A stretch of DNA of 64,000 nucleotides from Escherichia coli (GTDB lineage: Bacteria; Pseudomonadota; Gammaproteobacteria; Enterobacterales; Enterobacteriaceae). The stretch is from NCBI RefSeq assembly GCF_044324785.1, contig NZ_CP172127.1; one strand, 5' to 3'. Shown here in pieces: positions 63,380 to 63,456 of the stretch. The notes below the pieces were generated by a model that was not told where the DNA came from, did not search any database, and saw only the letters and a program-made list of their open reading frames with translations. A program made the translations under genes and the position numbers. Position 1 is the stretch's first letter; every line of letters starts with the position of its first letter.

Positions 63380-63456
63380 CGCGGGGTGGAGCAGCCTGGT
63401 AGCTCGTCGGGCTCATAACCCGAAGGTCGTCGGTTCAAATCCGGCCCCCGCAACCA
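63380..63456 (+). tRNA. metY: initiator tRNA-fMet (anticodon CAT), fMet1-type sequence
   Basis: 77-nt cgcggggtggagcagcctggtagctcgtcgggctCATaacccgaaggtcgtcggttcaaatccggcccccgcaacca; unpaired C1, three G-C pairs in anticodon stem, encoded CCA. Confidence 0.95.

Follow-up and report, generated by a model that had tools for sequence, protein, structure and literature searches.

A difference at position 46 between the metY gene of Escherichia coli K-12, which carries A46, and the other initiator tRNA genes, which carry G46, has been recognized ever since the sequencing of these tRNAs, and E. coli B is the strain classically known for a metY of the fMet1 type. In K-12, tRNA1fMet with m7G46 is the product of metZ, metW, and metV, and tRNA2fMet with A46 that of metY (Kapoor et al., PMC3017606), tRNAfMet1 and tRNAfMet2 differing from each other at position 46 alone (PMC3017606). 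For E. coli B, the passage of PMC3017606 that cites Mandal & RajBhandary (J Bacteriol 1992) assigns tRNA1fMet to all four genes and, by the same passage, the absence of A46 from this strain has been in print since 1992. Position 46 is not mentioned in PMC5393177.

Here, we analyzed a 64,000-nt stretch of E. coli DNA (“the window”), in which ARAGORN detected a single tRNA-Met(CAT) gene at positions 63380–63456 on the + strand. This gene, which reads ...CCCGAAGGTCGTCGG..., is 77 nt long with an encoded 3′ CCA end, and scored 61.4 bits against the Rfam tRNA family RF00005 (gathering score 29, E = 1e-12). Its minimum free energy fold is a cloverleaf in which base 1 is unpaired. It is followed on the same strand by a rimP leader (Rfam RF01770; 63545–63645, +; 102 bits vs a gathering score of 47), which lies between the tRNA gene and rimP and includes two terminator-like hairpins identified by a terminator scan (63578–63601 and 63626–63638, +), and then by the 5′ part of rimP (63663–64000, +), which has a TTG start, is collinear with K-12 rimP (b3170), and is cut by the window end. 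Since the rimP leader and rimP are found downstream, the tRNA gene is metY and not a metZWV copy. The gene order is collinear with argG–metY–rimP of K-12, argG and rimP flanking one lone initiator tRNA gene, and a tRNA-Met followed by rimP is also the annotated order in matching genomes. This is the same locus and operon context as that of K-12 metY (b3171, tRNAfMet2), whereas K-12 metZWV are clustered as three genes flanked by mltA and amiC. The window gene is thus metY, the lone initiator tRNA gene heading the metY–rimP–nusA–infB operon, which is seen here up to the 5′ part of rimP, with nusA and infB falling past the window end. Upstream of metY, a consensus scan identified two sigma-70 promoter-like sites, a 12/12 match (TTGACA-18-TATAAT; 63258–63287, +), which is presumably one of the described metY promoters, and a 9/12 match (TTTGCA-18-TAGAAT; 63335–63364, +), which ends 16 nt upstream of the tRNA 5′ end and has the same sequence in K-12, BL21, and two further genomes. 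Farther upstream in the window, the tRNA-Leu(GAG) gene leuU (59511–59597, +) is located downstream of secG as in K-12, and looks ordinary.

A C1×A72 mismatch is a determinant of formylation, and an A11:U24 pair is a signature of initiator tRNAs, elongators displaying a pyrimidine11:purine24 pair instead. In the window gene, C1 (63380) faces A72 (63452), a pair flagged as non-canonical by Rfam, and the D stem includes A11 (63390) paired with U24 (T at 63404). The anticodon C34 A35 T36 is located at 63414–63416, and G29, G30, and G31 (63409–63411) face C39, C40, and C41 (63419–63421) in the anticodon stem, i.e., the three consecutive G:C pairs (29–41, 30–40, and 31–39) that are a feature of initiator tRNAs (PMC3017606). 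The window metY therefore combines a CAU anticodon within a cloverleaf with C1×A72, three G:C pairs, and A11:U24, as expected for a bacterial initiator tRNA. C13, G22, and G46 are present as well, gene base 47 corresponding to canonical position 46 in this 77-nt tRNA given an extra D-loop nucleotide (17a).

We then aligned the window metY with metY from K-12 MG1655 (NC_000913, 3318213–3318289), metY from BL21(DE3), and K-12 metZ, metW, and metV. The sole variable column was gene base 47, i.e., canonical position 46 in the variable loop (63426, +), at which the window displays a G and K-12 metY an A. The window gene is identical at 77/77 positions to K-12 metZ, metW, and metV (tRNAfMet1, m7G46) and to BL21(DE3) metY, but at only 76/77 positions to MG1655 metY, with K-12 reading GAAGATCG and the window GAAGGTCG at the polymorphic stretch. 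With a G at 46 and a sequence otherwise as in tRNAfMet2, the window metY is of the tRNAfMet1 type and encodes the same tRNA as metZ, metW, and metV. When extended to 191 nt, including the promoter region, the tRNA, and the downstream flank, the comparison with K-12 metY still yields one differing base (A46 vs G46), while BL21(DE3) metY, which sits at the same locus and encodes the same G46 tRNA, differs from the window by one flank SNP at 63471. At this position, 15 nt downstream of metY, C is found in the window and in K-12, and T in BL21(DE3), Ecol_AZ147, and EC24. The initial annotation had described this metY as fMet1-type based on a G at position 46, with an A at the same position in K-12 metY and a G in K-12 metZWV and E. 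coli B metY. The alignment bears out this description on every count, including the A46 of MG1655 metY, and the G in metZWV and in E. coli B is also documented in PMC3017606. The base that had been marked, the capital in cccgaaGgtcg, is however the invariant G45 (63425), and the polymorphic position is the next G (63426), which leaves the conclusion unchanged.

The distribution of the two states was evaluated across 5,426 complete RefSeq E. coli genomes, a collection distinct from Shigella and from draft genomes. We used a 34-mer with A46 at its centre, from which megablast cannot seed a match to a G46 gene and which would miss any A46 gene carrying another mismatch close by. It matched in exactly 365 of these genomes, at one chromosomal place each. 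K-12 90-mers including either the upstream or the downstream metY flank were also found in 365 genomes each, indicating that all A46 genes are at the metY locus. Among the matches listed (~120 of the 365), the A46 carriers are K-12 derivatives, including MG1655, W3110-type strains, DH10B, MC4100, C600, HB101, J53, XL1-Blue, O16:H48, and others. Four A46 genomes are labelled as originating from duck, pork, human gut, and oil palm, yet these share 99.99–100% identity with MG1655 across the 10.5 kb surrounding metY, and thus carry the K-12 haplotype. Across the A46 genomes tested, 0–1 mismatch to MG1655 was detected over these 10.5 kb. The full-length K-12 yhcE::IS5 junction was found in 341 genomes, i.e., close to the number of A46 genomes.

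Conversely, the G version of the 90-mer had exact matches in 4,710 genomes when it included the upstream flank, and in 4,650 when it included the downstream one. Approximately 408 genomes fit neither version of the downstream-flank 90-mer exactly, and those sampled among the non-exact genomes (Ecol_AZ147, EC24, and BL21(DE3)) carry G46 along with a C-to-T SNP at 63471. Overall, ~93% of complete E. coli genomes carry G46. Separately, among the 5,425 genomes matched in each flank search, one or two displayed no full-length match at the metY locus: this was the case for IR53017 with the downstream-flank query, for which the best place was metZWV, and for CAVP888 with the upstream-flank query. In these two genomes, metY or its flank may have been rearranged or lost. 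Judging from this distribution, we interpret G46 as the ancestral and species-typical state, and A46 as a derived state private to K-12. It is very probable that tRNAfMet2 (A46) is private to the K-12 haplotype, with none in the ~5,060 other complete E. coli genomes nor in species representatives of the Enterobacterales. Given that G46 is found in ~93% of genomes, an fMet1-type metY excludes K-12 only: it carries no positive lineage signal and is not diagnostic of E. coli B.

Outside of E. coli, we scanned one genome per species across ~100,000 prokaryotic species for exact matches to a 21-mer including the anticodon arm and A46 (GGGCTCATAACCCGAAGATCG). This 21-mer was detected in 103 stretches, a count obtained for A46 with no matching G46 denominator, and 99 of 105 matches were inside tRNA-Met(CAT) genes. 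None of these exact matches came from Enterobacterales among the ~100,000 species representatives. Instead, they derived from ~100 scattered species including many archaea (Micrarchaeota, Methanosarcinales, Methanoregula, and Heimdallarchaeota), Flavobacteriales, Desulfovibrionaceae, Myxococcota, and others. The presence of the A46 21-mer in distant Met(CAT) genes indicates that A46 in such a context arose or persisted in distant lineages.

Taken together, it is virtually certain that the window metY is the ordinary, species-typical form encoding tRNAfMet1 with G46, jointly with A46 being derived and confined to K-12 and with the window being neither K-12 nor B. A reversion of metY to G46 within the K-12 lineage, e.g., through gene conversion from metZWV, could in principle yield the same gene, as metZWV would provide an identical G46 donor within the same genome. 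The flanks observed here are however not of K-12 origin: 136 mismatches to the K-12 haplotype were identified in the 10.5 kb around metY, as compared to 0–1 in K-12-haplotype genomes. Identity to MG1655 is likewise limited to 98.1–98.8% across the 64 kb (98.07% for 1–14653, 98.51% for 21199–51236, and 98.78% for 51240–64000), the yhc locus is devoid of IS5, and it holds a different fimbrial operon. Together with G46 itself, these features set the window apart from the K-12 lineage, and the identity and mismatch values provide independent backing for the non-K-12 origin proposed in the initial annotation. We thus consider a reversion highly improbable, the divergence of the flanks having already refuted it. 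An origin in the B lineage (BL21/REL606 type) is just as improbable: the metY of BL21(DE3) is identical at 77/77 positions, but this G46 is common to ~93% of complete E. coli genomes, position 63471 is a T in BL21 and a C in the window, and 74 mismatches separate the window from BL21(DE3) over 4.8 kb (98.47% identity). The window therefore represents a non-K-12, non-B E. coli.

More improbable still is the idea that the G at 63426 reflects a sequencing or assembly error, or that the gene is a non-functional or elongator tRNA-Met copy. We found nothing in favor of this idea, and identical 90-mers with unique metY flanks are found in 4,650–4,710 independent complete genomes, and an NCBI draft assembly (GCA_037978695.1) displays 1 mismatch in 20,702 bp over 9188–29889, which indicates that the window is a faithful natural sequence. 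A second draft (GCA_043675965.1) displays 3 mismatches over the same region. The initiator features (C1×A72, three G:C pairs, and A11:U24) are all present, which argues against a non-functional or elongator copy. Recurrence across thousands of genomes has thus already refuted this explanation, and the window metY is a genuine conserved gene rather than a chance pattern.

Among complete genomes, the closest to the 39001–64000 region of the window are strains N3 (99.5%) and 042 (99.2%), and for the 1–25000 region none of the 5,426 complete E. coli genomes exceeded 98.1% identity or 77% coverage. These weak matches, along with the surveillance-like nature of the matching drafts, raised the idea of a Shigella source, which we rejected by inference: the 64 kb contain no IS insertion and are collinear with K-12, and the draft contig that matches them spans 470 kb, both of which are unlike the IS-rich genomes of Shigella. 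A cryptic Escherichia clade, considered in view of the low identity, was rejected as well, as divergence peaks only beside the replaced yhc locus (~96% identity), with 98.3–99.5% identity from 28 kb on. Instead, the binned identity values fit an old variable-locus haplotype inside E. coli. Elsewhere, ~150 bases of K-12 located between dacB and obgE (NC_000913, 3330429–3330579) are absent at window positions 51236–51240, and these additional K-12 bases may represent a REP-type element.

The yhc locus itself was examined at the nucleotide and protein level. Positions 14654–21198 of the window yielded no nucleotide match to K-12 apart from a yhcG remnant, and a tblastn comparison of the ORFs in this region with K-12 proteins yielded 39% identity for YhcA, 35% for YhcD, and 27% for YhcF, along with 22% for a YhcF/GltF-like ORF. 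The locus corresponding to yhcA-yhcD-yhcE-yhcF/gltF (15488–20790, −) is thus held by a very divergent chaperone-usher operon (22–39% protein identity). This operon is covered by 0/5,426 complete RefSeq E. coli genomes at the megablast level, although its chaperone protein has exact records in 227 draft-assembly blocks. The “intact yhcE” of the initial annotation stands insofar as a 190-aa ORF is present (16150–16722), but it cannot be considered as the K-12 gene minus its IS5, since it is only 26% identical to K-12 YhcE over 144 aa (tblastn) and is part of the replaced fimbrial operon. The decayed state reported for yhcG holds: the remnant identified by tblastn (15125–15459, −) retains residues ~11–135 of 375 and includes a frameshift. 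The same yhcG truncation is found in two drafts (L010 and L013), and two related drafts (L011 and L012, 98–99% identical) encode an intact 357-aa yhcG. In strain N3, the fimbrial operon is absent altogether, and yhcG is full-length but frameshifted. Identity to both K-12 and N3 is ~96–97.5% beside the fimbrial locus (12001–28000, on the nanK/nanQ and gltD/gltB sides), as compared to 98.3–99.5% from 28 kb on. This dip at 12001–28000 is suggestive of a haplotype, either old or imported, surrounding a variable locus.

Based on established knowledge of initiator tRNAs, the window metY would be transcribed from upstream promoters and matured to a 77-nt tRNA, which would be charged by MetRS through its CAU anticodon and formylated owing to the C1×A72 mismatch. 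The formylated tRNA would then be delivered by IF2, with P-site selection via its three anticodon-stem G:C pairs. Within the tertiary core, G46 would be methylated to m7G46 and stack on the C13–G22 pair, and the K-12 A46 variant would be expected to go without the m7G46 modification. For the window product, the presence of m7G46 is presumed from its identity with the K-12 metZWV product.

The feature observed in the window is in itself ordinary and was known before. Part of the K-12-private reading is implied by the 1992 paper on E. coli B, and only the population-wide scope would be new. In practice, position 46 can serve as a one-base marker, with A46 at metY indicating the K-12 haplotype (365/5,426 genomes, all of those sampled being K-12) and G46 indicating everything else. 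For initiator-tRNA engineering starting from “metY”, it serves as a reminder that the K-12 gene is the atypical allele. More broadly, if A46 is indeed private to K-12, the “two initiator tRNA species of E. coli” found in textbooks would describe one laboratory lineage, and the window would illustrate the wild-type state of the species, i.e., four identical initiator tRNA genes.
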